This document shows positions 2,629 to 53,891 of a DNA stretch of 64,000 nt, in pieces; position 1 is the stretch's first letter, and each line of letters starts with the position of its first letter. Origin of the DNA: Candidatus Kaiserbacteria bacterium (GTDB lineage: Bacteria; Patescibacteriota; Minisyncoccia; Phycocordibacterales; UBA2100); the NCBI GenBank assembly GCA_016432285.1, contig CP066682.1, positions 730,274 to 794,273 of the forward strand, written 5' to 3'. The translations under genes were made by a program, and so were the position numbers. The notes beneath the pieces are model-generated. The model was not told the DNA's origin. It was given only the letters and a program-made list of their open reading frames with translations, and made no database searches.

Positions 2629-3303
2629 ATGAATCGCCAACCCATCGAGATCGGTGAGTGGTACCACTGCTACAACAGAGGCGTCGATAAAAGAAAAGTT
2701 TTTCTTGGACCAGGAGACTACGATCGTTTCTTGCTGCTCATGTATACGGCGAATGGTCATCTGCCCTCACACACCTTCCATCTTCGCGAAAAGCAACTAC
2801 AGAGATTCCTTGCGGAGGACAAGACGAAGCGCGACCAGATTGTGGAGATCGGAGCATATTCCCTGATGCCGAATCACTTCCACTTTGTGCTCAAGGAAAC
2901 ACGCGCGGGCGGCATCGCTCTGTTCATGCAAAAAGTACTGACCGGATACACCATGTTCTTCAACAAGAAAAACGAACGTACGGGGGCTTTATTTGCAGGG
3001 ACGTTCAAATCAAAGCACATCGACGATGACGATTACTTAAAGCTACTCATCCCCTACGTTCACCTCAACAGCGTCGAGCTGTTTGATCCCAAGTGGAAAA
3101 GCGGGAGAGGCAGCACCGCTGCCGTGCAGCAGCGAGTTTCGCAATACCCCTACTCGAGTTTGATGGATTTCATCGGCAAACCACGTCCCGAAAGGAAAAT
3201 CATTGGAGACGCGATTTTCGAACTGTATGACTCACTTCCGTCTGCACGCGAAATGCTTGACGACGCGAAGGAGTACTTCACGCAAACGAATACCGAGGTT
3301 TAA
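2629..3303 (+). CDS. REP-associated tyrosine transposase (RAYT, IS200/IS605 TnpA-like Y1 HuH family), copy 1
   Basis: 224 aa with a HuH motif (PNHFHFVLKE) and a C-terminal Tyr region (YPYSSLMDF), about 45% identical to the two other copies in the window. Flanked by cognate REPs, and its stop TAA lies in the centre of REP 3291-3311. Confidence 0.85.
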   Translation: MNRQPIEIGEWYHCYNRGVDKRKVFLGPGDYDRFLLLMYTANGHLPSHTFHLREKQLQRFLAEDKTKRDQIVEIGAYSLMPNHFHFVLKETRAGGIALFMQKVLTGYTMFFNKKNERTGALFAGTFKSKHIDDDDYLKLLIPYVHLNSVELFDPKWKSGRGSTAAVQQRVSQYPYSSLMDFIGKPRPERKIIGDAIFELYDSLPSAREMLDDAKEYFTQTNTEV

Positions 3304-3311
3304 CCTCGGTA
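3291..3311. repeat. REP (family 1) copy between convergent RAYT1 and rnc
   Basis: Perfect palindrome taccgaggtttaacctcggta. It contains the RAYT1 stop codon and abuts the rnc stop codon (3312-3314), so it probably acts as a bidirectional terminator hairpin. Confidence 0.85.
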
Positions 3312-4001
3312 CTACCAACCCTTTGCGGTCAGGGCTTTTTGTGCGGCGTCTTGTTCGGCCTCTTGCTTCGAGCGGCCTTCGCCGGAGGCGATTTTCTCCT
3401 TGCCGATATGCGCCGCCACCACGAAGCGTTTGTCGTGATCCGGGCCGCTCTGATCCACAAGCTCGTATTTCGGCGTGACGCCAAGCTGCTCCTGCGCGAT
3501 CTCCTGGAAGCGGCTCTTCGCGTCTTGCCACAAGCGCTTCGAGACCACCTCCTCGGTCTTGTGGAAAAGCTGATCCGCGATGAATTTTTTTGCGGCCTCG
3601 TAGCCGGCGTCGAGGTAGACTGCGCCGATCAGCGCTTCAAAGGCGTTGGCGAGGATGATTTGCCGCGCACGACCGGTGTCTCTCGACTCGCCGCGCGAGA
3701 GAAAGAGGTGATCGTTCATCTGGAGCACGGTTGCCGAAGCTGCGAGCGAGATCGTATTGACGAGCGCTGCCCGGTAGGCGGTGAGATCCCCTTCCGGCCG
3801 GTCGGGAAATTTGGCGTACAAAAATTCGGTAACCACGAGCTCCAGGACCGCGTCGCCCAAAAACTCCAGCCGTTCGTTGTGTTCGCGCCCGAGAGCGCGG
3901 TTTTCGTTGAGGTACGAGCGATGCGTAAACGCCTGCTCCAGGAGGCCCTTTTCCCGGAAGGTGTACCCGATCTTTTTTTCAAAACCAGCGAAGTCGGACA
4001 T
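3312..4001 (-). CDS. rnc: Ribonuclease III
   Basis: RNase III signature ERLEFLGDAVLE near the N-terminus, a C-terminal dsRBD-like region, 229 aa. Confidence 0.9.
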   Translation of the reverse strand: MSDFAGFEKKIGYTFREKGLLEQAFTHRSYLNENRALGREHNERLEFLGDAVLELVVTEFLYAKFPDRPEGDLTAYRAALVNTISLAASATVLQMNDHLFLSRGESRDTGRARQIILANAFEALIGAVYLDAGYEAAKKFIADQLFHKTEEVVSKRLWQDAKSRFQEIAQEQLGVTPKYELVDQSGPDHDKRFVVAAHIGKEKIASGEGRSKQEAEQDAAQKALTAKGW

Positions 4002-11672: not shown

Positions 11673-13385
11673 TTAGCTGCGCGCGATCACGATGCGCGGA
11701 GCGGCGCCGTCTTCCGGGCGAACGAAGCTCATCGCGTCTTTCGGTGCTTCGACAAAGAAGCGGGGTGCCTCTTCGCGAACCGGGAGGTTTGCGAGGCTAG
11801 CCGAACGAGCGATTGCCGGAGCCACTTTCTTTCCAAAGAGTGCCGGAGCTGCGACGGAGCCCGAGGACTGTGCCACCGGGGAGCGCTTCGGAGTGGCGAC
11901 CGCGAGCTTCGGAAAACCGAGACCCATGTTCGGGATGTAGTAGAGCGCGAGGTAGGCGCCGGCTGCCGCGAAGACAAGGAGCGAGCCGTAGAAGGCAGCG
12001 TTGCCCAAAAGCCCTGCGTCGAATCCGGTGTACGGAATCTGCGAGAGCGAGACCGAGGGACCGGCGACGTTGACCGCGACGTTGCAGGTGCGCGTGCCGC
12101 CTTGGCCCTGCACCGTGAGCACGTAGTTGGTCGAGACGTTGGGGCGCACCGTCAGAGAGCCGTTCGGTGAGACGTTGCCGATGCCGTCGGAGAGCCACGC
12201 CGAGTACGCGCCGTAGCTGGTCCACGAGAGCACCGTCGCCTGACCGTTTTGGATGTACGACTGCGAGGTCGTGATGATGCAGTAGAGGCCCTGCTGCGGA
12301 TACACCGGCGTTTGCGGGTAGACCGGGTACTGCGGATAAACGTACTGCACCGGGTACTGGATCGGGGTCTGATAGACCGGCGTTACTGTCGAGACGTTGG
12401 TGTTGCAGCTGCCGCCTGTGCACGTGTTGGTGTTGATGTTCGTGTTGGTGTTCGTGTTGACGATGTTGGTGCTCGGCGTCGGGAAGTAGACCGGAGGCTG
12501 TGGCTGCGGACGCGGAGGCTGTGGATAGACCGGAGGATAGCTCGGCGGCTGCGGCCGGATGACCGGCGGAGTCGTGTAGCTCGGCGGATAGCTCACCGAA
12601 CGCGGAGCCGAGTAGCTCGGAGCCGAGACGCGGAACGGCGCTGCGGCGGAAGCGTACTGCGGGTTCGAGTAGTTCTGCATCGAGTACCGCGTACCGAATT
12701 CATCAACATAGGTGTCGTAGATGCCGTACTCACTGTAGAGACCGTAAATATCGTACGGAGAAGAGTCACCGAAAAGCGCGCCTGTTCCATCACCAAAGAG
12801 TGCGCCGGAACCATCGCCGAAGTACGGATTGGAGCCGTCGCCAAAGAGACTGCCGGCACCATCGCCGAAGTACGAGCCAAGGCCATCGCCGTAGAAGTTA
12901 CCGAGGCCATCACCGAAGTACGAACCGGAGCCGTCCCCGAAGTACGAACTGAGACCATCGCCAAAGTACGAGCCGGAGCCATCGCCGAAGTACGGATCGG
13001 ATCCGTCGCCAAAGAGAGAGCCTGAGCCATCGCCATAGTAATAGCCGGAGCCGTCGCCGTAGATTGAACCGGAGCCGTCATCGAAGTAGGCGCCCCCTCC
13101 GTCGCCGTAATAGTAGCTTGCGCCATCACCGTAGAGGTTGCCAGCACCGTCTCCAAAGTAGAAACCACTCCCGTCATCATAGACAGAGCCGCCGCCGTCG
13201 CCGTAGTAGTAGCTTGCGCCATCACCGTAGAGGTTGCCGACACCATCACCAAAGAAACTTCCAAGTTCGTCGCCGCCGTAGGTATCGGCCGCCTCAGCGA
13301 CGCCAAAACTGCCCGCAAAAACGAGTGCGAGAGCGATGAGCCCGCCAAGAAATACGTTTGCATTTACACTGGATGCGGTTTTCAT
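11673..13385 (-). CDS. Secreted, C-terminally anchored protein with about 25 tandem octapeptide (F/Y)GDGxGx(Y/F/L) repeats
   Basis: Signal peptide MKTASSVNANVFLGGLIALALVFAGSFGVAEA. Residues about 40-240 are FGDGSGSY/FGDGLGNF/YGDGGGSV repeats, which show as a 24-nt DNA period from 12700 to 13300. These are followed by a Pro/Tyr/Gln-rich linker, an NTNTNINTNT tract, a beta-rich domain, an IPYTG motif, then a hydrophobic segment and a basic tail. Confidence 0.7.
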   Translation of the reverse strand: MKTASSVNANVFLGGLIALALVFAGSFGVAEAADTYGGDELGSFFGDGVGNLYGDGASYYYGDGGGSVYDDGSGFYFGDGAGNLYGDGASYYYGDGGGAYFDDGSGSIYGDGSGYYYGDGSGSLFGDGSDPYFGDGSGSYFGDGLSSYFGDGSGSYFGDGLGNFYGDGLGSYFGDGAGSLFGDGSNPYFGDGSGALFGDGTGALFGDSSPYDIYGLYSEYGIYDTYVDEFGTRYSMQNYSNPQYASAAAPFRVSAPSYSAPRSVSYPPSYTTPPVIRPQPPSYPPVYPQPPRPQPQPPVYFPTPSTNIVNTNTNTNINTNTCTGGSCNTNVSTVTPVYQTPIQYPVQYVYPQYPVYPQTPVYPQQGLYCIITTSQSYIQNGQATVLSWTSYGAYSAWLSDGIGNVSPNGSLTVRPNVSTNYVLTVQGQGGTRTCNVAVNVAGPSVSLSQIPYTGFDAGLLGNAAFYGSLLVFAAAGAYLALYYIPNMGLGFPKLAVATPKRSPVAQSSGSVAAPALFGKKVAPAIARSASLANLPVREEAPRFFVEAPKDAMSFVRPEDGAAPRIVIARS

Positions 13386-17300: not shown

Positions 17301-17771
17301 TTAGCGGCCGACCGGCACCGCGTAGCCGATGTCGATCGGACGGCCGATTTCGACAGCGTACCCGAGATCGATCGCGTGTCCGATTTCCACGCCGTACCCG
17401 ATCGTGATTGGACGACCCACGTTGACGCCATAACCAATCGGCACCGCGTATCCCAAGGTGATCGGACGGCCCACCGGCACGGGGTAGCCGAGCGTAATCG
17501 GACGGCCCGTCGGCACTGGATAGCCGGTCGGTACGGGAGAGCCCGTCGGATACGGGCGCCCGACGGAGGCGGGCGAGCCGGTGTAGCCGGGAGAGCCGTA
17601 TGAGCTCGGCGAAGCGTACGCCGACGGATATGCGTAGCCCGCGGAATAAGCGTAGGCAGAAGGGTACGCGTACGCGGAGTCGTACGAAGCGTACGACGGA
17701 TACGCCTGCGCGCTCGCGCTCCCGATGCTGACGGCAAAGAAAGCGATTGTGATGAGAAGAATTTTTTTCAT
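17301..17771 (-). CDS. Secreted repetitive protein (Tyr/Ala/Ser-rich, then GRPIT(L/I)GY(A/P)VPVG repeats)
   Basis: Signal peptide MKKILLITIAFFAVSIGSASAQA. Then AYPSYASYDSAYAYPSAYAYSAGYAYPSAYASPSSYGSPGY. Then six or seven 13-aa repeats GRPITLGYPVPVG, GRPITLGYAVPIG, GRPITIGYGVEIG, GRPIDIGYAVPVG. Confidence 0.6.
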   Translation of the reverse strand: MKKILLITIAFFAVSIGSASAQAYPSYASYDSAYAYPSAYAYSAGYAYPSAYASPSSYGSPGYTGSPASVGRPYPTGSPVPTGYPVPTGRPITLGYPVPVGRPITLGYAVPIGYGVNVGRPITIGYGVEIGHAIDLGYAVEIGRPIDIGYAVPVGR

Positions 17772-33654: not shown

Positions 33655-34647
33655 ATGTCATTCGACGTGCTGGCGATCGGAGATACGACCATCGACGCCT
33701 TTATCAAGCTCACTGACGCCGTCGCCACCTGCGACGAACACGGCGAGCACTGTAAGCTGTGCCTGCGATATGCGGACAAGGTGCCGTACGAATCCGTCGA
33801 GGTGCTCGCGGGCGTCGGCAATTCCGCCAACGCCGCGGTCGCCTGCGCGCGCCTCGGCCTCTCAAGCGCACTCCGGGCTTACGTGGGCGACGATCGTGAA
33901 GGCACCGAGTGCATCGAGTACTTCAAGAGCCAGCATGTCGACACTTCTCTTGTTGAACGAGCGCCGGGCGTGAAGACAAATTACCACTACGTGCTCTGGT
34001 ACAAAGCCGACCGCACCATCCTCATCAAGCACGAGCGCTACGCGTACGCGATGCCGGCGACAACCCCGGAGCCGAAGTGGGTCTATCTCTCCTCGATGGC
34101 CGACAACTCGCTCGAGTACCACAAAGAGATCGCCACGTATCTTATGGCGCATCCTGGTGTGAAGGTCGCCTTTCAACCGGGCACCTTCCAGATGAAGCTC
34201 GGCGTCGACGTGCTGAAAGACATCTACGCACGCTCAGAAATTCTGTTCTGCAACAAAGAGGAGTCGCAGCGCATATTGAAAACGCAGGAGGACGACGTGA
34301 AGAAGCTCCTCGAGGGAATCCGAGCGCTCGGGCCCAAGCTCGCCGTCATCACCGACGGCCCCAGCGGGCTCTCCGCTTCAGACGGCAACGAGCAATTCCA
34401 TCTCCCCATGTATCCTGATCCGAAGCCACCGGTGGAGCGCACCGGCGCGGGAGACGCCACATCTTCAACGACAGTCGCCTATCTCGAGAAGGGTCTCTCG
34501 CTCCAGGAGGCCCTGAAGCGCGGGCTCATCAATTCCGCAAGCGTGGTGCAGCACGTGGGCGCTCAAAAGGGCCTGCTCTCGGCAGAAGAGATCGAGGAAT
34601 GGTACGTGCGGCGTCCCGCACATTTCGTAGCCGCACCTCTCTCATAA
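33655..34647 (+). CDS. PfkB-family carbohydrate kinase (ribokinase-like)
   Basis: MSFDVLAIGDTTIDAFIKL (N-terminal GD motif) and the C-terminal anion hole/ATP motif TGAGDATSSTTV. 330 aa. Confidence 0.75.
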   Translation: MSFDVLAIGDTTIDAFIKLTDAVATCDEHGEHCKLCLRYADKVPYESVEVLAGVGNSANAAVACARLGLSSALRAYVGDDREGTECIEYFKSQHVDTSLVERAPGVKTNYHYVLWYKADRTILIKHERYAYAMPATTPEPKWVYLSSMADNSLEYHKEIATYLMAHPGVKVAFQPGTFQMKLGVDVLKDIYARSEILFCNKEESQRILKTQEDDVKKLLEGIRALGPKLAVITDGPSGLSASDGNEQFHLPMYPDPKPPVERTGAGDATSSTTVAYLEKGLSLQEALKRGLINSASVVQHVGAQKGLLSAEEIEEWYVRRPAHFVAAPLS

Positions 34648-34650
34648 CGC

Positions 34651-34669
34651 CGGGATTTCGTAAATCCCG
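34651..34669. repeat. REP (family 2) copy upstream of RAYT2
   Basis: cgggatttcgtaaatcccg palindrome, 4 nt after the pfkB stop and 8 nt before the RAYT2 start. Confidence 0.8.
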
Positions 34670-34676
34670 ATTCCGC

Positions 34677-35330
34677 ATGGAGTTTTACCACGCACTCAAC
34701 AGGGGCGTTGAAGGCCGCAAACTCTTCCTCGACGACAGAGATCGTTTTCGATTCGTGCACGATCTGTGGGAATTCAACGACTCTGCACCTGCACCCGAAT
34801 TCTCCCGATATCGGGATTTACGAAATCCCGATACCTTGCCCGCACGTGAGCGCATCGTTGATATTCACGGTTGGTGCCTGATGAGCAATCACTACCACCT
34901 CTTACTCTCCGAGTGCCGCGAGGGAGGCCTTTCCTACTTTCTTCGAAAACTCAACGTGGGATACGCCAACTATTTTAACGAAAGATATGAAAGGCAGGGG
35001 TCCTTGTTCCAAGGACGAACGAAGAAAATCCTCATCGCGTCAGACGCACACTTTCTTCACATTCTGCACTACATACACCTCAATCCACTCGACTTCCTTC
35101 GAGCGACCCGTGATTGGCGCGCCGGGCGCATTGTTGGTCGCGGGCGAGCGATTGAGCACCTACAGAAGTATCGTTGGAGCAGCTATCTGGACTATTGCAG
35201 CCGAAAAAATTTCCCCTCCGTCGTTACAACGGAGTTGTTCGTAGATGTCTTCAAGAACTATGAAAAAGTGATTCGTTCCTACCTACAAGATATGGAGTTT
35301 GACGACGTACGTCCCCTGCTGCTTGAGTAG
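34677..35330 (+). CDS. REP-associated tyrosine transposase (RAYT), copy 2, with a REP-derived in-frame insert
   Basis: MEFYHALNRGVEGRKLF...GWCLMSNHYHLLLSE (HuH)...YRWSSYLDY (Tyr). An 11-bp-arm REP palindrome at 34807-34834 encodes residues ...RYRDLRNPDT... inside the ORF. Confidence 0.85.
   Translation: MEFYHALNRGVEGRKLFLDDRDRFRFVHDLWEFNDSAPAPEFSRYRDLRNPDTLPARERIVDIHGWCLMSNHYHLLLSECREGGLSYFLRKLNVGYANYFNERYERQGSLFQGRTKKILIASDAHFLHILHYIHLNPLDFLRATRDWRAGRIVGRGRAIEHLQKYRWSSYLDYCSRKNFPSVVTTELFVDVFKNYEKVIRSYLQDMEFDDVRPLLLE
34807..34834. repeat. REP (family 2) copy embedded in-frame within the RAYT2 coding sequence
   Basis: tatcgggatttacgaaatcccgata is a perfect palindrome with 11-bp arms and the same family as the flanking copies. 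The ORF frame stays open across it. Confidence 0.8.
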
Positions 35331-35341
35331 TTTCGGCCGGA

Positions 35342-36360
35342 TTACCGGGATTTACGAAATCCCGGTGTGGGTGATCGCCGGGCGGCCGCGCGGATCACCG
35401 CCTCTTTGATCGCGGTGTGAGACATGCCGAAGTGCTCGATAAGCTCCTGCGCCTCTCCCGACTGGCCGAAGCGATCCTGCATGCCGATAAACTCGATCGG
35501 CACCGGAGCCTCTCGCGAGAGGAGCTCGGCGATCGCGCCCCCGAAGCCCCCGTGCACCTGGTGCTCCTCCACGGTAACGACCGCACCCGCGCGCGTCGCC
35601 TCGCTAACGATCGTCTCCCGGTCGAGCGGCTTCACCGTGTGCACGTTGACCACGCTCACCTCGGTACCTTCGGCCTCCAGATCGCGCGCCGCAAGGAGCG
35701 CCTGATAGAGAAGAGAGCCTGTCGCGAAAATCGCGACCGATGGATTTTTGGATTGCCAGAAGAGCTGCGCCTTGCCGATCTGAAACGGCGTATCGGGAGT
35801 CGTCATGACAGGACTCTTTTCCCTGCCCCATCGCATGTACACGGGAGTGCCGAGCTTGGCAGCCGCGATCGTCGCCTTCCTGCCCTCCTCCGAATCGCAC
35901 GCGGAAATCACGGTAAAGCGCGGGATCGCGCGCATCATCGCGAGATCTTCGAGCGCCTGATGCGTCGCGCCGTCGGGGCCGACGGAAACGCCCGCGTGCA
36001 TGCCGCAGACGATGACCGGCACGTTGTTGATCCCGATCGTGGTGCGAATCTGCTCCCAGTTGCGGCCCGGATTGAACGCCGCGTAGGAGGTGATGAACGG
36101 AATCTTGCCGTAATTGGCCATGCCCGCCGCAACCGTCGCGAGGTTCTGCTCCGCGACGCCCACCTGCACGAAGCGCTCGGGAAATGCCTTTTCGAAATGG
36201 TGCGCCTGCGTGCTCTCCGCGAGGTCTGCCGTCAGCACGACGACGCGCTCATCGGCTTTTCCCGCTTCGACGACCCCTTTGCCAAACCCTTCGCGCGTCG
36301 AAGCCATCGCGGGCTTCTCGAAGATATTCTCGGCGAGTTTTGCGTCGGGATTGATCATAC
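35342..36360 (-). CDS. tkt: Transketolase, C-terminal subunit (pyrimidine-binding plus C-terminal domains)
   Basis: Start MINPDAKLAENIF at the ATG 36358-36360. Transketolase Pyr domain (...FPERFVQVGVAEQNLATVAAGMA...) and the C-terminal domain. The last 7 codons and the stop are REP-derived. Confidence 0.85.
35344..35366. repeat. REP (family 2) copy at the tktC 3' end
   Basis: accgggatttacgaaatcccggt. Read on the minus strand it encodes the last residues PGFRKSR, and the stop codon of the transketolase C-subunit ORF sits beside it. Confidence 0.8.
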
Positions 36361-45645: not shown

Positions 45646-46815
45646 TCAAACAGAGCACGAAGCTCTATATTCGACGGGCAATCTGTCGCAAAGCTTCCGG
45701 GTGCGCCCGCCTCCATATGAGCGTATGTCTTTCGAGAGGCGCATATAGCACGCCCCTCTCATTTGATCACTCACGAGTGCGCAGAAGCGAAACGACGCCT
45801 CCGGATCATTTTCACCGCCCCAAAAGATTGAGGCGACCGCGTCCGCAATACATGCGTCCCGCCCGTCAGCAGCAACAATCAGCCCACACCAGGAAATCGC
45901 CGTGCGAAATTCGTCGTCGGAAAAGCGGTCGACTTTGCGGATGTCTCGCTTCCCGGCGAGCGGAACAAACTCTTTGCCGAATCCCCCGAAGCACGCGTCG
46001 CGCCAATCCTGCCGCTCCTGCGGTATCGCCTCGCAGTACGACGACGCCGTACCGAAGAAAGCCGGATCTGGCGCCCCAAGACGTGCGCCTGCCACCTCGA
46101 GGAGGCGCGGCGTCAGGTAGATGAGACAGAGTGTCTTGGTCGGATCAGGCAGGAGATCGCTCATGCAGGGTGCGAGCGCATCGTTTGCGGAAAAATAGCG
46201 AACACGAGCTTTCATCCATGCGGATCGGTCGTGGCCCCCACCGCCCACGAGCTCCATGATCGCGCCGCCCACGCACTCCGTGTACTCCTGCTGTCCATGT
46301 CCGTCGGTACCTGTCTTTTTACAGAAATCGACCGTCGCAGGAAGATCGTAATCAAAAAAGGCGAAGACGCCGTGCCCGAGGCCGTGGTAGCACATGGTGT
46401 ACGCACCCGAGCGCCCGGGCGCAGTTTCGCAGGCTTCGCGGATACGCGGGAGCGCGGCCTCGCCGCCATATTCCTCGAGTGCGCCAATCACGATCGAGTG
46501 TGAGCACGCATTGCGAAAATCCTGCGAGCAGAGCGCGATTCCCTCGACACCTTTCTGCCGATAAAGTTCGTCGCCTACTGTATGCCCGAGGAGGTGGAGA
46601 TCGGTTTGCGGTGGGAGGGATGCAGCACGGAGCACCTCAAAGGCGTGCTCGGCACCCTTCTCCTTCGCAAGCGCAACGAATCGGTCTTGAATTTCCTGAA
46701 AATTGCGGGCGTCTTTCCCAATACGCTGCGCGTCCCAGGCACTTGATCCTGCGTTTAGAAGAAGTACCGAGACAAGTAGGAAAATAACAACCGCCACTCC
46801 CCTCCAGATCGTCAT
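45646..46815 (-). CDS. Secreted or membrane Cys-rich protein, paralog B (CYHGLGH motif)
   Basis: N-terminal TM (VAVVIFLLVSVLLLNAG). Motifs HLLGHTVGDE, TMCYHGLGHGVFAF and FCKKTGTD are colinear with paralog A. 389 aa. Confidence 0.55.
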   Translation of the reverse strand: MTIWRGVAVVIFLLVSVLLLNAGSSAWDAQRIGKDARNFQEIQDRFVALAKEKGAEHAFEVLRAASLPPQTDLHLLGHTVGDELYRQKGVEGIALCSQDFRNACSHSIVIGALEEYGGEAALPRIREACETAPGRSGAYTMCYHGLGHGVFAFFDYDLPATVDFCKKTGTDGHGQQEYTECVGGAIMELVGGGGHDRSAWMKARVRYFSANDALAPCMSDLLPDPTKTLCLIYLTPRLLEVAGARLGAPDPAFFGTASSYCEAIPQERQDWRDACFGGFGKEFVPLAGKRDIRKVDRFSDDEFRTAISWCGLIVAADGRDACIADAVASIFWGGENDPEASFRFCALVSDQMRGACYMRLSKDIRSYGGGRTRKLCDRLPVEYRASCSV

Positions 46816-46840
46816 GCGACAATTATAAACTTTCGAGATC

Positions 46841-47380
46841 TCAGAATTTGAACAGAACGGTGCCGATCATCTCCGAGGGCTGGATTGTGCCCCAGACCCG
46901 GCTGTCTTCACTTTGCGCGCGGTTGTCTCCCATGAGGAAATAATCTTCAGGACCCAGCTTCATTTCAAAATCCGGGCCGTTCCCCGCCTTTTCCCCTTCT
47001 TCCCATTTCTCAATGTTCGCCCCTTTCTCCTCTGCTCCCCCTTCCTCCCATTTTCCCCCTTTTCCCCTTTCTGCTGTCACCGATCCGTTCGCAATGCGGA
47101 TCGTTTCGTTCGGCAGTCCGATTACGCGCTTGAGGATGATCGGGTGCTGCGGATTACGCGGATCGCGGAACACCACCGGCGAGCCGCGGAAAAGCCCGAT
47201 AAGCCGCGGCGAGATCTTTTCCACGAGCAGGTAATCACCTTCCTGAAAAGTCGGCTGCATAGAAATTCCCGTCACGATATACGGCCGTATCAGAAAAGGC
47301 AGGAGCAAAATCAGAGTTGCAACAACGGTCAAGACTGGATCCCTCCGAATTCCTGGGAGGTTTAGCCTTCCAATTTTCAT
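46841..47380 (-). CDS. lepB: Signal peptidase I
   Basis: SPase I boxes: GISMQPT (Ser nucleophile), KRVIGLPNETI (Lys general base box) and GDNRAQSEDSRVWG. It has an unusual Gly/Glu/Lys-rich insertion (GKGGKWEEGGAEEKGANIEKWEEGEKAG). The ATG at 47378-47380 overlaps the RAYT3 stop (ATGA), and the first about 10 codons are REP-derived. Confidence 0.8.
   Translation of the reverse strand: MKIGRLNLPGIRRDPVLTVVATLILLLPFLIRPYIVTGISMQPTFQEGDYLLVEKISPRLIGLFRGSPVVFRDPRNPQHPIILKRVIGLPNETIRIANGSVTAERGKGGKWEEGGAEEKGANIEKWEEGEKAGNGPDFEMKLGPEDYFLMGDNRAQSEDSRVWGTIQPSEMIGTVLFKF
47352..47373. repeat. REP (family 3) copy at the RAYT3/lepB junction
   Basis: cctgggaggtttagccttccaa with arms gggagg/ccttcc. It lies within the first codons of lepB. 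Confidence 0.8.
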
Positions 47381-48036
47381 ACGCCGACATCTTTGTATCG
47401 TAGCCAATAATCCACATGATCCTGAACTTCCCTAGCGCTCGATAGGTACCCGGGGAAAGCTCGCGGAGAAGTAATTACGTGACGGTTGTTGATATATTCT
47501 CCCAGGCTCGAATACTGATACTCGCTTACATGTCTCTGTAGTTTCCCAAAGTCGCGTGCTCCGAATTTCTTCCAATTTGGATCTTTCAATTTGGCTGGAT
47601 TTAGATGAATATAGGAAAATAAATATTTAGCATACGCATCACCCTCCACGTGCGAGGCCTTAAACGTCCCCTGAAAAAGCGCGCCACTTCGCTCATGTTT
47701 TTCATTGAAATACATCGTATACGCAGTCTGTAGTCTCTGCATAAATTTCGAGATACCGCCGTCGACCAGCGGTGTCAGATACAGATGAAAATGATTGGGC
47801 ATCAAACAATACGCGCCTATTGCCACTAAAGAACTGGAAGGTTTAGCCTCCCAGATCCGGCTCGAGGTTTTAGAAGAGAATAGAAAATCGATTCTTTTGT
47901 TTTCTCTATCATTGAGCAGGAAAAGGTACACCAGAAATCTTTTGTACTCCGCTGGCGACATGAACACTCGGCGTTTATCAACGCCTCTATTGTAAATGTG
48001 ATAGAACTCGCCTTCTGCAAAGGTGATGCGTCTCAT
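47377..48036 (-). CDS. REP-associated tyrosine transposase (RAYT), copy 3, with a REP-derived in-frame insert
   Basis: MRRITFAEGEFYHIYNRGVDKRRVF...GAYCLMPNHFHLYLTP (HuH)...SEYQYSSLGEY (Tyr). The internal REP at 47834-47854 encodes ...RIWEAKPSSS... Its start ATG overlaps the stop of the giant upstream ORF, and its stop overlaps the lepB ATG. Confidence 0.85.
   Translation of the reverse strand: MRRITFAEGEFYHIYNRGVDKRRVFMSPAEYKRFLVYLFLLNDRENKRIDFLFSSKTSSRIWEAKPSSSLVAIGAYCLMPNHFHLYLTPLVDGGISKFMQRLQTAYTMYFNEKHERSGALFQGTFKASHVEGDAYAKYLFSYIHLNPAKLKDPNWKKFGARDFGKLQRHVSEYQYSSLGEYINNRHVITSPRAFPGYLSSAREVQDHVDYWLRYKDVGV
47834..47854. repeat. REP (family 3) copy embedded in-frame within the RAYT3 coding sequence
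   Basis: ctggaaggtttagcctcccag. The reading frame is maintained across it. It sits in the same protein loop as the embedded REP in RAYT2. Confidence 0.8.
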
Positions 48037-51000
48037 AGAGTGGGCGGATCGCGGCGCTCACTGGAAGGTTTAGCCTTCCAACGGGAGCGGGGCGGAGCGT
48101 CTACTGGAAGGTTTAGCCTTCCAGTGGGGGGCTTCCCTCTTGGGACGGGGAGGATGAAGAAGGACATGCCGATGAGGAAGGCGATGGCTTGGACGAAAGA
48201 GGAGACGACGGAGGCGGCGGAAGCGGCGGAGTATTTGAAGGGCTGCTCGGCAAATGCCATGTACACGTACGTCCCCCCGCTCGCATTTGCACCAGCTGCC
48301 GTGTTTCGCTGCTTGAACCCATTGGCGAGAAAATCCATATCGTTGCAGGACGCGGTTTCCGCTGCGTTGGACTCCAATCCAAAACACGGACTGATCGGAT
48401 TACTCGTATCTCGCGCCGCATCGTATGTATTCCAAGAGTATCCGAGCGTGTCTGTCCGTTTGATCACTACGTACTTAGGTTTGAACCCCGTGTACACAAA
48501 CGGCCCATCGGCCGAGCCGTTGCCGGTGTAGGAGCCGAAGTCGGAGAAGCCGGAGATTTCATCAAAAAGATAGGCGACATAGTTGTTGCCGCTGGTATTC
48601 ACATCAGCATTGGTACCGAGCGAGAAGACGGATGCGGTCGGCGCGGTGTCGTTCCAGTAGGTGGCATCGTCGGCGGTCGCGGCTGTGCCGTTCATCAAGA
48701 GGTAATCGGTCTCCGGCGCTGAAGTATTGGCAGCGTGGTAGACCGCCCAGTCGTTGGTCGCGCCGCGGTCTTTTACGATCATAAATTCTGGTGCAGAAGA
48801 GAGCGAATGGCTGATTGTGCGATTGGCACCGGTGCCGGCGTACGGCACGATATCGAATCCGCTCGTCGGATCTTCCTTCCAAAGCCACGAGATGTAGTTG
48901 TTGCCGCTTGTGTTGAAGAGCGAATTTGTGCCGAGCGTGAAGCCGTTTTCCAAGAATGCGGTGAGTGCCGATGCCGAGCTCGTCTCAATCGTCGTCGCGT
49001 TTGAAGAAAGATACGGAAACGTACTGCGTAGCGAATCGAAGAGCCCGTGCGCATTCGCGCTCGTTCTGTCTTTTATCCATGTGAGCGTCGGCGTGAAGTC
49101 GAGCCCCGTCACCGAGAGCGCGGCCCCCGTCCCCGTGTACGTGAGCGCATCGAAGTAATCATCGGGCTGCGTAATCGTCGGCGTAGGAAGATTCGTGGTC
49201 GAGAGGGCTTTGAAATCCGTCGGTGGTGCGTATTGGAAGTACCCTCCTGCCGATGAGCGGTATGGAAGTACCGTTGCTGTTGATGTCGGCGAAGAAGACT
49301 GGCCGAAGTTGAAATTGTACGAATGAGTCTGCCCGCTGGTTTGGCCAGCACCCGCGCCAATGAAGAGCGGGCCAGTGAGACCAGTAAATGCCGAGTTCGT
49401 GCCCGCTGCCGGATCACCGCTCGCCTGCCACGTGCCATTTTTTGAAAACCAAATCTTTCCGTTATCCAAATCGAGCGCAACGCCAATAACGTCGTTGGTC
49501 GTAAAGGTGTCGCCATAGGCGCTGTCACTGCTGCTATTTCGCTTGTTTCCACCACCTGCGTACGTGTACGCGAGATAATTGCTCTCGAGAATACAGTTTT
49601 GAACGGATGACGCGCCGATGAGATATCCTCCGCTAACGCCCGTAGTTCCGGTCGGGACGATCTCGGCGTACCATTTGCCCGATGTGGGTCCGATGGAAGA
49701 GCGACCGAATGTATAACAAGCCGGCGACGCGGGAAAGCTGTCTATCGTTGCCGTGAGGTTTCCTTGAGCAGCCGTCAGATCACTCGACGAATTTGCCAGT
49801 ATGTTTAGAGTCGCAGACCCATTCGTCGGGGAATCCTTGACGTTGTCGGTCGCGTCGAGGTTGTTGGCCGTCCAGTCATTGTTGTTGCTACTCGTATCGT
49901 CGCCGGGGCTGGTGGAGGTGAGCGGCAGGTGGAATCCATTAGTGCCATACGTCCCCGAATATGTCTTCGGTCGCCAGTAGCCCGATGCGTCGTATTCGCC
50001 GAAGTCGGAGGGGGTGAGTGCTTGTCCGTCGATGGCGTAGAAATCCGCAAGGTAGCCGTCGTAGTAAGAGGTCCCGCTATGCTGTTTGCCGAAAGCGTGT
50101 ATGACATTGTCGAGAACGTTCACGTCCGAGTTTTGCGTCATTGATGTATAGCCGGAGCCCGACCACGTTTGTGCAACGCCATTGACCCAAAGCCGGATTC
50201 TATCCGCGGCAGTTGCCTGCGTACTGTCTACGGTAAAGACAATGTGGAGCCACGCACCTGGATCGCGAAACTTCGCGTTTGTTGTATAGCTCCAGGTCTC
50301 ATTACCTGCATAGCCATACAACGTATCGCTGGTCGTAAACCGGAGGCCGTCTGCCGAGTATGCCGACCAGTTGATAAGAAATTGCTCGGTCCCCAGATTT
50401 GCCCGCTTGACCCAAAAGCTGAACGTCGCTGTCTTGCCCGCACCCGTCCCCGCAGATGAGAACGTTTTGGTTAGACTCGCACTATCGTCATCATTGAAAC
50501 GCGTGCTCGATGCGATGGTGAGGTTGTACGCTTGCGCGGATTGCTGGAAGGGCTGTTCGGCGAATGCGGCGTAGACGTACGTGGCACCACTGGCATTGTA
50601 GTTGGCATCCGTCGCACGCGGCTTGAATCCGTTTGAGAGAAAATCCATCTGCCTACTTGATCCGTCGTCTGCGTTTGTCAGATTGGCGTAGATCATGATG
50701 TCGCGGAGATTACCGTCGCCAGCAGCGCTACGTCGGTTGTCCCAGATGTACCAGCCGTTCGTTGAGGCACTGTCGCTTCTTTTTACAAGCAAGAACGCCG
50801 GCTTGAATCCCGTATACACGAACGGCCCATCGCTTGAGCCGTTGCCGGTGTAGGAGCCAAAAGATGAGTAGCCGGTGGTAGAGGCGAAGAGGTAGGCGAC
50901 GTAGTTGTTGCCGCTTGTATTTACATCCGCGTTGGTGCCGAGCGAGAAGACGGATGCGGTCGGAGCCGTATCGTTCCAATATGTAGCGTCGTCGGCAGTT

Positions 51001-53891
51001 GCCGCAGTCGAATTGAGAAGCAGGTAATCGGTCTTTGGGTCAGAGGTGTTTGCGGTGTGGTACACCGCCCAGTCGTTGGTGGCACCGCGATCTTTGATGA
51101 TCATAAAGTCGGGGGCGACACCGAGCGAGTGGCTCACGGTGCGATTGGCTCCCGTGCCCGTGTAATTCACGATGTCGAAGCGCGAGGTCGTGTCTTCTTT
51201 CCAGTTCCAGCTCACATAATTGTTGCCGCTCGTGTTGAAGAGCGCATTGGTGCCGAGGGTAAATCCATTCGAGAGGAAGCTCGTGAGCGTGGTCGAGGCA
51301 CCGCCGGTCTCCGCCGTCGTCGCATTGGACGAGAGGTACGGGAAGACGGAGCGGATGGCATCGAAGAGCCCGTGCGCGTTCGCGCTCGTGCGGTCTTTAA
51401 TCCAGACGAGGGAGGGGGTGAAGCCGAAGGATACGCCGGTCGAGACGTAGGTAATTTTGATGATGCCTTGCGCCCCCGCGCCGCCATTGCCCGTGGTCGT
51501 TCCTCCATATCCGCCCGAGCCGCCGCCGCCGCCGTAACTGCCCCCGTTGCCGCCGGCCGAACCGGTCGGCTCTTGCCCCGAACCGCCGGCGCCACCGCCA
51601 CCAGAGCCATGAGTGGCGTCCCACTCGGTACCGTTACCTCCGTTGCCGCCCGCCGCCCCCGCCACACCAGTGCCTCCGGCACCGCCTAAACCATTACCGC
51701 CCTGCCCGCCACTGGTGCCTGCAACTCCAGCACCAAGACCTGCAGTGCTAACGCCATCGGCACCCGCACCACTTGGGCCGCCGGCGCCACCACCACCCTG
51801 CCCGGCATAGTTGTTGGAGATATAGCCGCCTGTCCCGCCATTATATTTCGTACTCCCTACTGAAGCCGATGCAAGCCCGCCGGCTCCGGAACCCGTCAAG
51901 TAAACTGCACCATTGCCTGCCTTTGCACACACCGAAACAGTGTCGGCACAAGTGTTTGCTGACCCCGATGTCCGATTAAAGAATGTATCTGTTCCGGCAC
52001 TACCGTTCGACCCGTTGGTCGCGCCGCCTGCACCTCCTGCACCGACCTGAAAAGTGACGTTCCCGCCGGGAGTAAGAGAAAGATTTGATACTTTTGAATA
52101 AGCTCCGCCGCCGCCGCCGCCGTGGTCGCCATCGGCAGTCCCATCACGAACGCCGCCGCCGCCGCCGCCGATTACCTCAATAGTGTTGCTCGCATTGCCC
52201 CAATCGCTCGGCACCTGCCAAGTTTTGGCCGTCGTGTCCGTGAGATATACCGTGACGGTTTGCCCGGCAGTAGATGCGGCTGCCCGCGATACAGACTGTG
52301 CGGCGCCGCTACCCGTGTACGCCACCGCGTCAAAATAATTCTTCGGCACCGTGACCGCCGGCTCCGGAAGATTGGCAGTAGAAATTGCTTTGAACCCCGT
52401 CGGAGGCGTGTACATAAAGTAGCCGCCGGCTGCCGAGTCGTAGGTAAGTGTCGTTGCGGTGGAGGTCGGATTTTTGGATTGCCCGAAAATCAGATAGCTT
52501 TCCGTACTTCTGCTTACTCCAGCATCCATTCCTACTACCGGAAAAATCGGCGTGGTGGTGGAGATGTTGGAGAAGGCGGCATTTGTGCCCGCCACCGGAT
52601 CGGAAGATTCAAACCATCCGCTTTCGTCGCGGACGAAGAGTTTTCCGGCATCTGCATCGATCGCAACACCTAGGGTCAGATCGAGAGAACACGTGGAGTA
52701 CGTCGGCCCATACGCCGTGAGCGTCGTGTTGTAGATGGTGCACGATTTACCGCCGGTACACGAGCCCGAATTGGCGGGTAGCCATCCCCAGCTATTCGTA
52801 GTTTGCCCTACATATTCATCTTTACTTGCGTTGGTATTTGCTACTCCTACTTCAACATTGCAAATTCCCGACAAGTTCGCACTGCGAGCTTCAAAATACC
52901 ACTTGCCGCTGGTGATACCCATCGTTGCAAAATCGGTGGCGTTGGTACCGGTCCGGCTTGAATACAGATTGCCTTGAGAGTACGTCGAGATGGAAGGCTT
53001 GTTGAGCACGTTCAGGGTCGGATACATATTGGTCGGCGTATCAACCTCTTGATCCGTCGCGTTGATATTGTTGGCGGTCCAGTCGTTGTTTTGGCCGCTC
53101 ACGTCGTTACCAAGATCCGAGCCGCTCGCGAAATCAAGCTTAAAGCCGTTGGTGCCGTAGGTTCCGGTGTAGCTTTTGGGTCGCCAGTAGCCGTTGGCGT
53201 CCGTCTCGCCAAACGACGATGGCGTCAGCGCCTGGCCGTCGATCAGATAGACATCGGAAAGGTAACCATCAAAGTATGTTGAGTTTGAGTTACCGAATCG
53301 CCCTATTGCATGTGGATCCGTGCCATTTACTCTCGTGTCGACGTTTTGCGACGGGTCGTTTGCATCGCGAGCGATTCGCTGGCCATTCACATAAAATATG
53401 ACCCTGTCACCTGCGGTAGCTGCTGTCGTGTCCACAGCGACTACCACGTGCATCCATTGTGAAGGGTCTCGAAATACCGCGGTACTTTGTGTAGTCGGCG
53501 CGTTTGAACTGCTTTCTCGGCGTTGGAATTGGAGCTTATCGGAGTTGAAAGATATCGACGTGTGATGATCACCCGCCGTTGGTTCAGCGCTAAAGAGGAT
53601 ACCGTCTGTGAGATTCGCCCGCTTCACCCATGCACTCCACGTCCACGTCTTTTTATTTCCTGCGCTACTGGGCGTGCGCGACAGTCGAGCACTGTCGTCG
53701 TCGTTGAAGCGCGCGGAATTCGATATTGAATACGCGGCTTTGGCTTCCGGAAGCTGGAGGAGCACAAATTGCGTCGCAAATATCGCCAAGGAGATGAGAA
53801 GCGCGGTCGCGATACGGTGATGCCAGAGGTATCCCCCGATTGCGGGAATATATTTAGAGTTTAAAGATTTAAATGTTGGAAGCGGGAGCAT
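48033..53891 (-). CDS. Giant membrane-anchored surface protein (1952 aa) with two LamG-like (concanavalin-A-like lectin) domains in a duplicated ~800-aa super-repeat and a Gly-rich core
   Basis: N-terminal anchor (IATALLISLAIFATQFVLLQL). Two LamG-like jelly-roll signatures (TWTWSAWVKRANL...WMHVVVAVD...VIFYVNGQ and TATFSFWVKRANL...WLHIVFTVD...IRLWVNGV). A duplicated block ending NYVAYLF...FGSYTGNGS(A/S)DGPFVYTGFKP...YVYMAFAEQPF. A central tract of about 250 aa that is more than 50% Gly (GGGGGVRDGTADGDHGGGGGGAYS...GGNGGSYGGGGGSGGYGG). The last about 40 codons are REP-derived. Confidence 0.7.
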   Translation of the reverse strand: MLPLPTFKSLNSKYIPAIGGYLWHHRIATALLISLAIFATQFVLLQLPEAKAAYSISNSARFNDDDSARLSRTPSSAGNKKTWTWSAWVKRANLTDGILFSAEPTAGDHHTSISFNSDKLQFQRRESSSNAPTTQSTAVFRDPSQWMHVVVAVDTTAATAGDRVIFYVNGQRIARDANDPSQNVDTRVNGTDPHAIGRFGNSNSTYFDGYLSDVYLIDGQALTPSSFGETDANGYWRPKSYTGTYGTNGFKLDFASGSDLGNDVSGQNNDWTANNINATDQEVDTPTNMYPTLNVLNKPSISTYSQGNLYSSRTGTNATDFATMGITSGKWYFEARSANLSGICNVEVGVANTNASKDEYVGQTTNSWGWLPANSGSCTGGKSCTIYNTTLTAYGPTYSTCSLDLTLGVAIDADAGKLFVRDESGWFESSDPVAGTNAAFSNISTTTPIFPVVGMDAGVSRSTESYLIFGQSKNPTSTATTLTYDSAAGGYFMYTPPTGFKAISTANLPEPAVTVPKNYFDAVAYTGSGAAQSVSRAAASTAGQTVTVYLTDTTAKTWQVPSDWGNASNTIEVIGGGGGGVRDGTADGDHGGGGGGAYSKVSNLSLTPGGNVTFQVGAGGAGGATNGSNGSAGTDTFFNRTSGSANTCADTVSVCAKAGNGAVYLTGSGAGGLASASVGSTKYNGGTGGYISNNYAGQGGGGAGGPSGAGADGVSTAGLGAGVAGTSGGQGGNGLGGAGGTGVAGAAGGNGGNGTEWDATHGSGGGGAGGSGQEPTGSAGGNGGSYGGGGGSGGYGGTTTGNGGAGAQGIIKITYVSTGVSFGFTPSLVWIKDRTSANAHGLFDAIRSVFPYLSSNATTAETGGASTTLTSFLSNGFTLGTNALFNTSGNNYVSWNWKEDTTSRFDIVNYTGTGANRTVSHSLGVAPDFMIIKDRGATNDWAVYHTANTSDPKTDYLLLNSTAATADDATYWNDTAPTASVFSLGTNADVNTSGNNYVAYLFASTTGYSSFGSYTGNGSSDGPFVYTGFKPAFLLVKRSDSASTNGWYIWDNRRSAAGDGNLRDIMIYANLTNADDGSSRQMDFLSNGFKPRATDANYNASGATYVYAAFAEQPFQQSAQAYNLTIASSTRFNDDDSASLTKTFSSAGTGAGKTATFSFWVKRANLGTEQFLINWSAYSADGLRFTTSDTLYGYAGNETWSYTTNAKFRDPGAWLHIVFTVDSTQATAADRIRLWVNGVAQTWSGSGYTSMTQNSDVNVLDNVIHAFGKQHSGTSYYDGYLADFYAIDGQALTPSDFGEYDASGYWRPKTYSGTYGTNGFHLPLTSTSPGDDTSSNNNDWTANNLDATDNVKDSPTNGSATLNILANSSSDLTAAQGNLTATIDSFPASPACYTFGRSSIGPTSGKWYAEIVPTGTTGVSGGYLIGASSVQNCILESNYLAYTYAGGGNKRNSSSDSAYGDTFTTNDVIGVALDLDNGKIWFSKNGTWQASGDPAAGTNSAFTGLTGPLFIGAGAGQTSGQTHSYNFNFGQSSSPTSTATVLPYRSSAGGYFQYAPPTDFKALSTTNLPTPTITQPDDYFDALTYTGTGAALSVTGLDFTPTLTWIKDRTSANAHGLFDSLRSTFPYLSSNATTIETSSASALTAFLENGFTLGTNSLFNTSGNNYISWLWKEDPTSGFDIVPYAGTGANRTISHSLSSAPEFMIVKDRGATNDWAVYHAANTSAPETDYLLMNGTAATADDATYWNDTAPTASVFSLGTNADVNTSGNNYVAYLFDEISGFSDFGSYTGNGSADGPFVYTGFKPKYVVIKRTDTLGYSWNTYDAARDTSNPISPCFGLESNAAETASCNDMDFLANGFKQRNTAAGANASGGTYVYMAFAEQPFKYSAASAASVVSSFVQAIAFLIGMSFFILPVPRGKPPTGRLNLPVDAPPRSRWKAKPSSERRDPPTL
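48061..48124. repeat. Two REP (family 3) copies at the 3' end of the giant gene
   Basis: ctggaaggtttagccttcca (48061-48080) and ctggaaggtttagccttccag (48104-48124). The giant ORF reads through both (...GRLNLPV... and ...WKAKPSS...) before stopping at 48033. Confidence 0.85.

Follow-up and report, generated by a model that had tools for sequence, protein, structure and literature searches.

The window analysed here, a stretch of 64,000 nucleotides (nt) from a Candidatus Kaiserbacteria genome, carries a string of genes in which a putative REP-associated tyrosine transposase gene (RAYT; REP, repetitive extragenic palindrome), referred to below as RAYT3, is placed between a giant surface-protein gene and lepB. 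The string comprises a giant gene of 2256 amino acids (aa), an open reading frame (ORF) of 163 aa, a second giant gene of 1952 aa, RAYT3, lepB and more genes, and the junctions along it read either TGAtATG or ATGA. The whole string, including the three genes of interest (the 1952-aa giant ORF, RAYT3 and lepB), lies on the minus strand. The giant ORF (48033-53891) encodes a secreted or surface protein in which the ORF list and Pfam placed two DUF7483 domains, a LamG domain and a SPRY domain. RAYT3 (47377-48036) encodes a Y1 HUH transposase-like protein of 219 aa with the motif H82-F-H84 and Tyr142 within YIHLNP, both invariant in 36 family members. The lepB gene (46841-47380) encodes signal peptidase I (S26), 179 aa long when read from the ATG at 47380 and 163 aa long when read from the TTG at 47332. 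This ORF matched Pfam Peptidase_S26 with 110.7 bits and TIGR02227 with 101.9 bits (cut-off 47), and the catalytic dyad of LepB, S49 (SMxP) and K93 (KR), was invariant in the homolog alignment A1. Two ATGA overlaps join the three frames: at 48033-48036 (minus strand, context ctctATGAgac) the giant-ORF stop TGA overlaps the RAYT3 start ATG (48036-48034), and at 47377-47380 (minus strand, context gcgtATGAaaa) the RAYT3 stop TGA (47379-47377) overlaps an in-frame lepB ATG (47380-47378).

Four copies of a single hairpin, REP3, surround or occupy RAYT3. Two are located upstream and inside the giant ORF, the first at 48103-48124 (CTGGAAGG-TTTAG-CCTTCCAG; -9.3 kcal/mol, z -6.0) and the second at 48060-48081, 24 nt 5' of the RAYT3 ATG. 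The third (47833-47854) lies in frame within the RAYT3 ORF, where it encodes WEAKPSS upstream of the HUH motif, and the fourth (47352-47373) begins four bases past the RAYT3 stop. On the coding strand, this downstream copy has an A-C mismatch, and it folded only weakly there (-2.3 kcal/mol), whereas the other single-stranded hairpin copies folded at -6 to -10 kcal/mol. Counting distinct sites on both strands with up to 3 mismatches, we found four REP3 sites against 0.12 expected from shuffles, and for REP1 and REP2, the hairpins of two further RAYT genes of the window, 4 sites against 0.00 and 3 against 0.03, respectively. An earlier, sequence-only reading of the window had reported four overlaps between ORFs and hairpins; all of them were present, and the frequency of the motifs was far above that expected by chance from the shuffles. 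The same reading had overlooked the internal copies, that of REP3 in the RAYT3 ORF and that of REP2 in the RAYT2 ORF.

RAYT3 (35.3 bits) and RAYT2 (23.7) scored above the Pfam Y1_Tnp cut-off of 23, and RAYT1 (20.6) below it. The only NCBIfam match was NF047646 (REP_Tyr_transpos), with 30-37 bits for the window RAYTs (37 for RAYT3) against a cut-off of 80. A search of the PDB with the single RAYT3 sequence returned no match, and the best solved-structure match of the 36-member family profile was the E. coli TnpAREP structure 4ER8, a weak one (E = 0.03).

The giant ORF remains open across both upstream REP3 copies and ends with the TGA at 48035-48033. Five orthologous proteins have shorter tails, ending in GMSF* (L002 and L003), GMEI* (L004), GMTF* (P0246) and GMAF* (P0248), and lack the last 41 codons of its translation (FILPVPRGKPPTGRLNLPVDAPPRSRWKAKPSSERRDPPTL, 48036-48158, minus strand), which give the peptide FILPVPRGKPP-TGRLNLP-VDAPPRSR-WKAKPSS-ERRDPPTL. 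The window and L002 share collinear DNA as far as ggcatgtccttc (GMSF), with divergence setting in at the following base, and the inserted DNA lacks the ancestral stop of the giant gene at its left edge. Judging from these alignments, the C-terminus of the giant protein is extended relative to its orthologs. The read-through of two REP copies and the TGA/ATG overlap proposed previously were thus recovered, but the extension measures 41 codons against the orthologs instead of about 38, and it is REP-encoded only in part, around 14 of the 41 codons coming from hairpins. The C-terminus AIAFLIGMSFFILPVPRGK had also been considered as a membrane anchor with a basic tail, a reading that we dropped because the orthologs stop at GMSF*. 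Independently of its terminus, about 2.3 kb of the 1952-aa giant gene are duplicated internally with 72-75% nucleotide identity (48449-48748 versus 50771-51070, and 48969-49102 versus 51294-51427); this duplication corresponds to its two DUF7483 domains.

The occupancy of the junction between the giant gene and lepB varied among relatives. No gene separates the DUF7483 giant gene from lepB in L005 (GCA_016307145.1; ttcTGAtATGaag, TGAtATG), where the slot is empty. In L002 and L003 (lepB 63-69% identical), it is filled by a RAYT2-type cassette whose hairpin, TGGGATTTACGAAATCCCA, is found upstream of the ORF, within it and downstream; lepB is there open through the downstream hairpin to an ATG located 1 nt past the RAYT stop. 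In L004, the slot is occupied by a gene of the 23S_rRNA_IVP family with ATGA overlaps on both sides, and in L005 and L006 a gene of that family instead follows lepB. By these comparisons, the giant-lepB junction is apparently a recurrent landing slot.

We consider it likely, and hold this with some confidence, that the single base separating the giant gene from lepB in a packed operon became the insertion site of a REPtron-like cassette, and that the neighbouring genes now read into it. The cassette consists of a RAYT-type Y1 (HUH) gene with private hairpins about 25 nt upstream (where the hairpin is duplicated), after the stop and inside the frame, and would have entered that junction between the giant surface gene and lepB within a string of tightly packed co-directional genes. 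With next to no room between the genes, the adjacent frames run into the cassette. The giant ORF runs on past GMSF for 41 codons, through both upstream hairpins, to the TGA over the RAYT3 ATG, and the lepB frame is open back through the downstream hairpin to the ATG over the RAYT3 TGA. The RAYT2 and RAYT1 cassettes do likewise on a smaller scale, with a tail of about 10 residues on tktC in one case and a RAYT1 stop set hard against the rnc stop in the other. RAYT3 itself probably relies on read-through transcription and on termination-reinitiation at the ATGA overlaps. The overlaps would then be mostly passive results of insertion, presumably tolerated since the peptides gained form terminal tails.

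Several observations weigh against this scenario. We found no empty giant-lepB junction in a relative more than 70% identical, L005 being only 50% identical, and without such a relative neither the limits of the insertion nor the start that lepB had originally can be located at nucleotide resolution. The first REP3 hairpin begins 33 nt past GMSF, so that the hairpin itself is not what removed the stop of the giant gene. The window assembly and the Logan contigs may share samples, in which case the latter give no independent confirmation of the missing stop. By our own estimate, each ATGA overlap has a chance of a few percent and could be a coincidence. Finally, on the identical Logan contig L001 (11.8 kb), the only one on which RAYT3 itself was found, a gene caller placed the lepB start at TTG 47332 (163 aa), with GGAGG 9 nt upstream; with that start the downstream hairpin would fall between genes and lepB would be unaltered. 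No recorded LepB of 179 aa was found.

The gene call on L001 and its GGAGG motif support an alternative in which lepB starts at TTG 47332, the hairpin is intergenic, the ATG at 47380 is coincidental and LepB is neither remodelled nor coupled. The open frame upstream of that TTG is only about 25 codons long and plausible by chance, and many REPs at annotated N-termini are probably in fact extragenic, with translation beginning further downstream (Di Nocera 2013, PMC3733652). This alternative deserves attention, but we judge it unlikely. LepB read from TTG 47332 has no cytoplasmic N-tail, and its hydrophobic segment is then just about 15 residues long, unlike 15 of the 16 LepB homologs, in which tails of 6-38 residues with 1-6 K/R precede the membrane helix. 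The RRDP codons just upstream of TTG 47332 fit the conserved R-x-P motif of several relatives, and the sole canonical start for the stretch between the hairpin and these codons is ATG 47380. Shine-Dalgarno-like motifs, looked for at up to six candidate starts from the beginning of each gene, were not enriched at the gene starts of the window (16 of 38 genes, with a background of 12% per start-like codon), which speaks against relying on GGAGG. The arrangement of a lepB frame open to an ATG is moreover repeated with the unrelated cassette of L002 and L003. On the homolog N-tails, ATG 47380 is favoured and moderately probable as the lepB start. If it is the start, hairpin 47352-47373 encodes lepB codons 3-10 (I-GRLNLPG). 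The earlier statement that the RAYT3 TGA overlaps an in-frame lepB ATG and that the first lepB codons are REP-encoded can therefore be kept for the overlap and, from that ATG, for codons 3-10, whereas the use of the ATG as the actual start is ambiguous.

Termination-reinitiation at the ATGA overlaps is plausible for both RAYT3 and lepB, and a reasonable inference because such overlaps fit the packing of the operon, recur in L004, and RAYT3 has no Shine-Dalgarno-like motif. The transposase had been described as co-translated with signal peptidase; this term is wrong, since the two products are separate proteins, and it overstates an overlap that would permit coupling. A further peculiarity of lepB is a purine-rich low-complexity insert, ERGKGGKWEEGGAEEKGANIEKWEEGEKAGNG (46985-47085, minus strand), which most homologs do not have. 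K/E/G-rich stretches like that of the lepB insert also occur in the IVP-family protein of L004 and in the N-tail of the L004 LepB.

The three RAYTs of the window are 32-46% identical to each other and each has its own hairpin family. REP1 occurs nowhere but around RAYT1, and REP2 and REP3 are confined to RAYT2 and RAYT3, respectively, where they lie both around the gene and within it. All 11 hairpin copies of the 64-kb window lie inside their own RAYT gene or within about 110 nt of it, and no solo copy was found there. A scan of the GTDB species representatives, made with an alignment of the three proteins, yielded at least 563 related loci confirmed by tblastn, essentially all in metagenome-assembled genomes (MAGs) of Patescibacteria, with identities of 55% or less. 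We analysed the best 80 of these at least 563 loci together with RAYT1, RAYT2, RAYT3 and the L002 RAYT (n=84). In 78 of the 84 loci, a hairpin preceded the start by no more than about 130 nt, typically by 20-40 nt, and the upstream hairpin of a locus was repeated at its own stop region in 46 of these 78, compared with 0.75% of cross-locus pairs. The stem sequence varies by locus around a common AGG-loop-CCT top. A GT[AG]G foot accompanied 5 of 181 hairpin copies versus 18 of 181 random control positions; among the window copies, GTAG directly follows 48103-48124 only. RAYT pairs with 84-86% identity (L047 versus L075 and L039) occurred in non-homologous flanks, and some pairs with 78-84% identity were syntenic. 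Since RAYTs this similar sit in unrelated flanks, the cassettes relocate over evolutionary time. In L034 and L045, whose RAYTs are 69% identical and have one flanking gene in common, the downstream flank of one locus matches the upstream flank of the other, which suggests that the cassette was inverted at one site or inserted independently.

The privacy of the hairpins bears on the idea, put forward in the sequence-only reading, that free REPs had inserted into gene ends. In this alternative, the hairpins would have arrived singly, as transposing solo REPs, and not with RAYT cassettes. REP3-like hairpins away from a RAYT can exist. In a metagenome scan with the REP3 19-mer, we retrieved 20 contigs, of which 2 carried hairpin-flanked RAYT3-like genes (56-58% identical) and the other 18 a single REP3-like copy without a RAYT within the stretch examined, several of these providing a stop codon in the loop; complementarity extended one base past the REP3 pattern in 15 of the 20. 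In about 17 of the 80 related loci, moreover, additional hairpin copies were present within 3 kb, at distances of 0.4-1.9 kb to the RAYT. In addition, AATT borders the downstream REP3 copy on both flanks, as would suit a 24-nt in-frame insertion into an ancestral lepB beginning MKIRRDP..., although this direct repeat is too short to carry weight as a sign of solo insertion into lepB. HUH Y1 transposition (IS200/IS605 family) is not known to create target duplications, and we counted this against the solo origin as well. The confinement of 11 out of 11 window copies to their own RAYT gene or its immediate surroundings, and a layout with one hairpin about 25 nt upstream and another 0-10 nt downstream that is the norm of the family, make an origin from solo REPs quite improbable. 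The window copies are instead the flanking hairpins, each family private to its gene, of three RAYT cassettes set in near-zero gaps. Among the solo REP3-like hairpins, those of L095, L106, L107, L108 (one locus, four samples), L089 and L090 lie at ORF 3' ends with the loop forming the stop TAA or TAG, and in L091 the solo copy is inside an ORF of 1082 aa.

The hairpins could also be host terminators, RNA stabilisers or attenuators, their association with a Y1 gene being incidental. The promoter and terminator scan gave nothing usable, except that two REP3 copies fit a loose terminator pattern, and REPs elsewhere have been reported to act on mRNA stability and termination (PMC3733652). Such host elements would hardly be expected to be private to one RAYT, to differ by locus and to recur inside that very ORF, nor to change in concert and flip orientation as described below. 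Besides, lepB downstream needs transcription through the hairpins, and an Rfam scan of 46000-49000 matched no family. We thus regard an incidental association as highly improbable and retain the insertion of a RAYT cassette as the likely origin of the hairpins.

An internal copy of the hairpin is a feature of roughly a quarter of the 78 Patescibacterial loci. With up to 12% mismatches, the upstream hairpin recurred within its own RAYT ORF in 18 of 78 loci, compared with 0.3% of cross-locus comparisons, and with up to 18% mismatches in 22 of 78, compared with 0.7%. The internal copy was nearly always positioned +150 to +185 nt from the RAYT start (L015, L016, L017, L025, L032, L038, L041, L050, L053, L064, L067, L069, L071, L072, L074, L077, L078, L081, L083, L085 and L002); the encoded segment, which precedes the HUH strand, is variable and often reads Q/K-G-x-T-L/F. 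We rejected the possibility that every family member carries an internal hairpin around +150 nt, as stems of at least 6 were present in 43% of the members versus 23% of the control windows; stems of 7 or more at this position were mostly those matching the flanks. The loci L015, L025 and L041 form a syntenic trio in which the loop reads TTCAA or TTCGA depending on the lineage, in all three copies at once, and same-site copies have opposite orientations in different relatives. Because loop changes are concerted and orientations flip, the internal copy shares the DNA-level dynamics of the flanking copies. It is conceivable, if rather doubtful, that the internal hairpin is a working cis-site and not a tolerated insertion, the transposase exchanging or flipping the three copies and perhaps using the internal one to limit or regulate its own gene, and that the cassettes are still active, land in junctions and, once coupled to essential neighbours such as lepB, are sheltered from loss. 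The joint change of the loop in the three copies of the trio and the differing orientations are compatible with such a role.

The two other cassettes of the window repeat the pattern of RAYT3 more modestly. RAYT1 (2629-3303, plus strand; 224 aa) is preceded by three REP1 copies at 2522-2608 (2522-2545, 2541-2564 and 2585-2608) and followed by one at 3288-3311 (TACCGAGG-TTTAA-CCTCGGTA), the REP1 palindrome being ACCGAGG-TTTAA-CCTCGGT. The RAYT1 stop TAA (3301-3303) is at the loop centre of the downstream hairpin (3291-3311), as had been noted before, and the stop codon of rnc (3312-3314, minus strand) adjoins this copy with zero gap. A RAYT stop lay within the loop of its own hairpin in 18 of 48 loci, and RAYT1 is in this respect ordinary for the family; RAYT1 has no internal hairpin copy. 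RAYT2 (34677-35330, plus strand) encodes 217 aa from MEFYH. Its REP2 hairpins are located upstream at 34651-34669 (CGGGATTT-CGT-AAATCCCG), 3 nt past the pfkB stop and 7 nt 5' of the RAYT2 ATG, internally at 34812-34830, in frame and encoding RDLRNP, and downstream at 35344-35366, between the convergent RAYT2 and tktC. The RAYT of L002 and L003 has a hairpin at the position matching the RAYT2 internal copy (MWDLRNP). The longest RAYT2 ORF starts at 34599, 78 nt upstream of MEFYH, and crosses the upstream copy of REP2, which encodes TPGFRKSR there; owing to the palindromic nature of the hairpin, the downstream copy contributes the same peptide to the tktC tail on the other strand.

The tktC gene (35342-36358, minus strand) encodes a transketolase C-terminal subunit of 338 aa that ends in SPTPGFRKSR*, about 10 residues beyond its orthologs. 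Its terminal PGFRKSR does come from the hairpin at 35344-35366, as claimed earlier, but of the TAA stop, also ascribed to that hairpin, just the first base is in the stem. Query coverage by the tktC orthologs was 92-98% in all 120 among the matches listed. The tail past the shared C-terminal motif counted 32-37 residues in 90 of the 92 proteins with anchorable tails, a set that includes the protein of the window, whose own tail has 42. The transketolase profiles of Pfam and NCBIfam are complete before the tail begins, and a syntenic tktC-pfkB locus of 82% identity has no RAYT and a tktC ending in KKVMGRK*. These comparisons indicate that the terminus of tktC has been remodelled, modestly. The broader claim that REPs remodel the termini of essential genes can be maintained only in a reduced form. 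The comparison of termini does give giant and TktC tails longer than those of the orthologs, but the change in tktC concerns about 10 residues outside the catalytic domains, the giant gene is not known to be essential, and the remodelling of lepB depends on an ambiguous start.

The cassettes of the window resemble REPtrons (Nunvar 2010; Ton-Hoang 2012, PMC3333891; Di Nocera 2013, PMC3733652), in which a Y1 HUH gene is bracketed by gene-specific palindromes, several distinct RAYT/hairpin pairs coexist in one genome and the repeats overlap the ends of the RAYT ORF; the best structure match of the window family, TnpAREP 4ER8, points in the same direction. They differ from REPtrons in that the proteins score far below the NCBIfam RAYT cut-off, the hairpins have no GT[AG]G foot and are low-copy, private and not dispersed (within the 64-kb window), and the host is Patescibacterial. 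Close relatives also occur in unrelated contexts, so that a cassette of the window type looks mobile, not fixed. With IS200/IS605 elements, they share a Y1 HUH transposase, subterminal hairpins on both sides and presence or absence at a site among relatives. In contrast to these elements, both cassette ends carry one palindrome instead of distinct left and right ends, there is no tnpB gene, and no near-identical multiple copies were seen, the window RAYTs being as divergent as indicated above.

Overlaps between REPs and genes have been described before. REPs near or over ORF ends, REP-encoded peptides inside genes and REPs over RAYT gene ends were reported by Di Nocera 2013 (PMC3733652), where flanking repeats over the 5' or 3' end of a RAYT ORF are termed "5'ov/3'ov". 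According to the same study, just over 10% of intragenic REPs are at the C-terminal end and more are at the N-terminus, and Rickettsia palindromic elements are cited there as lying inside or over protein-coding genes. Our case is similar in that in-frame palindromes at the ends of ORFs or inside them add short peptides; the difference is that the palindromes are here the end hairpins of the cassette itself and that the neighbours are in an operon with 1-4 nt spacers. In-frame REP insertions are also known within tnpAREP genes of subclass 2.4 (Quentin 2018, PMC6006769), where, as here, a cognate REP lies in the RAYT gene with the frame kept, at a site in the protein that varies and is presumably peripheral. 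In the window family, by contrast, the HuH-Y distance is an ordinary 58 aa, the copy is upstream of HuH in about a quarter of the family, and the internal copy follows the flanking ones in loop changes and flips. The in-frame hairpin in RAYT is thus a variant of a published feature, not a new one.

The understanding of REPs and RAYTs is unchanged by this locus, and the published observations are extended to a new phylum and to a more compact setting, a Patescibacterial genome in which extreme gene packing makes overlaps almost unavoidable. Where a cassette lands in a genome that has hardly any DNA between its genes, the neighbouring proteins gain short cassette-encoded tails, and an essential gene such as lepB may come to depend on a start codon overlapping a transposase stop. 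RAYT-like cassettes are abundant in Patescibacteria, many of them with their own hairpin in frame, and annotation faces a systematic uncertainty in the start and stop calls beside them.

Two unrelated sets of repeats are present elsewhere in the window, both in minus-strand ORFs. In the ORF at 11673-13385, whose protein of 570 aa has a hydrophobic segment at the N-terminus and is rich in Pro/Tyr/Gln in its middle part, at least 13 tandem units of 24 nt (12763-13290) encode an 8-residue repeat resembling YFGDGSGS. The ORF at 17301-17771 encodes a small protein whose N-terminus carries a signal-like hydrophobic segment, and it contains repeats with a 36-nt period (17308-17528), which encode units of the type (G/R)(Y/P)(A/P)V(P/E)(V/I)G.

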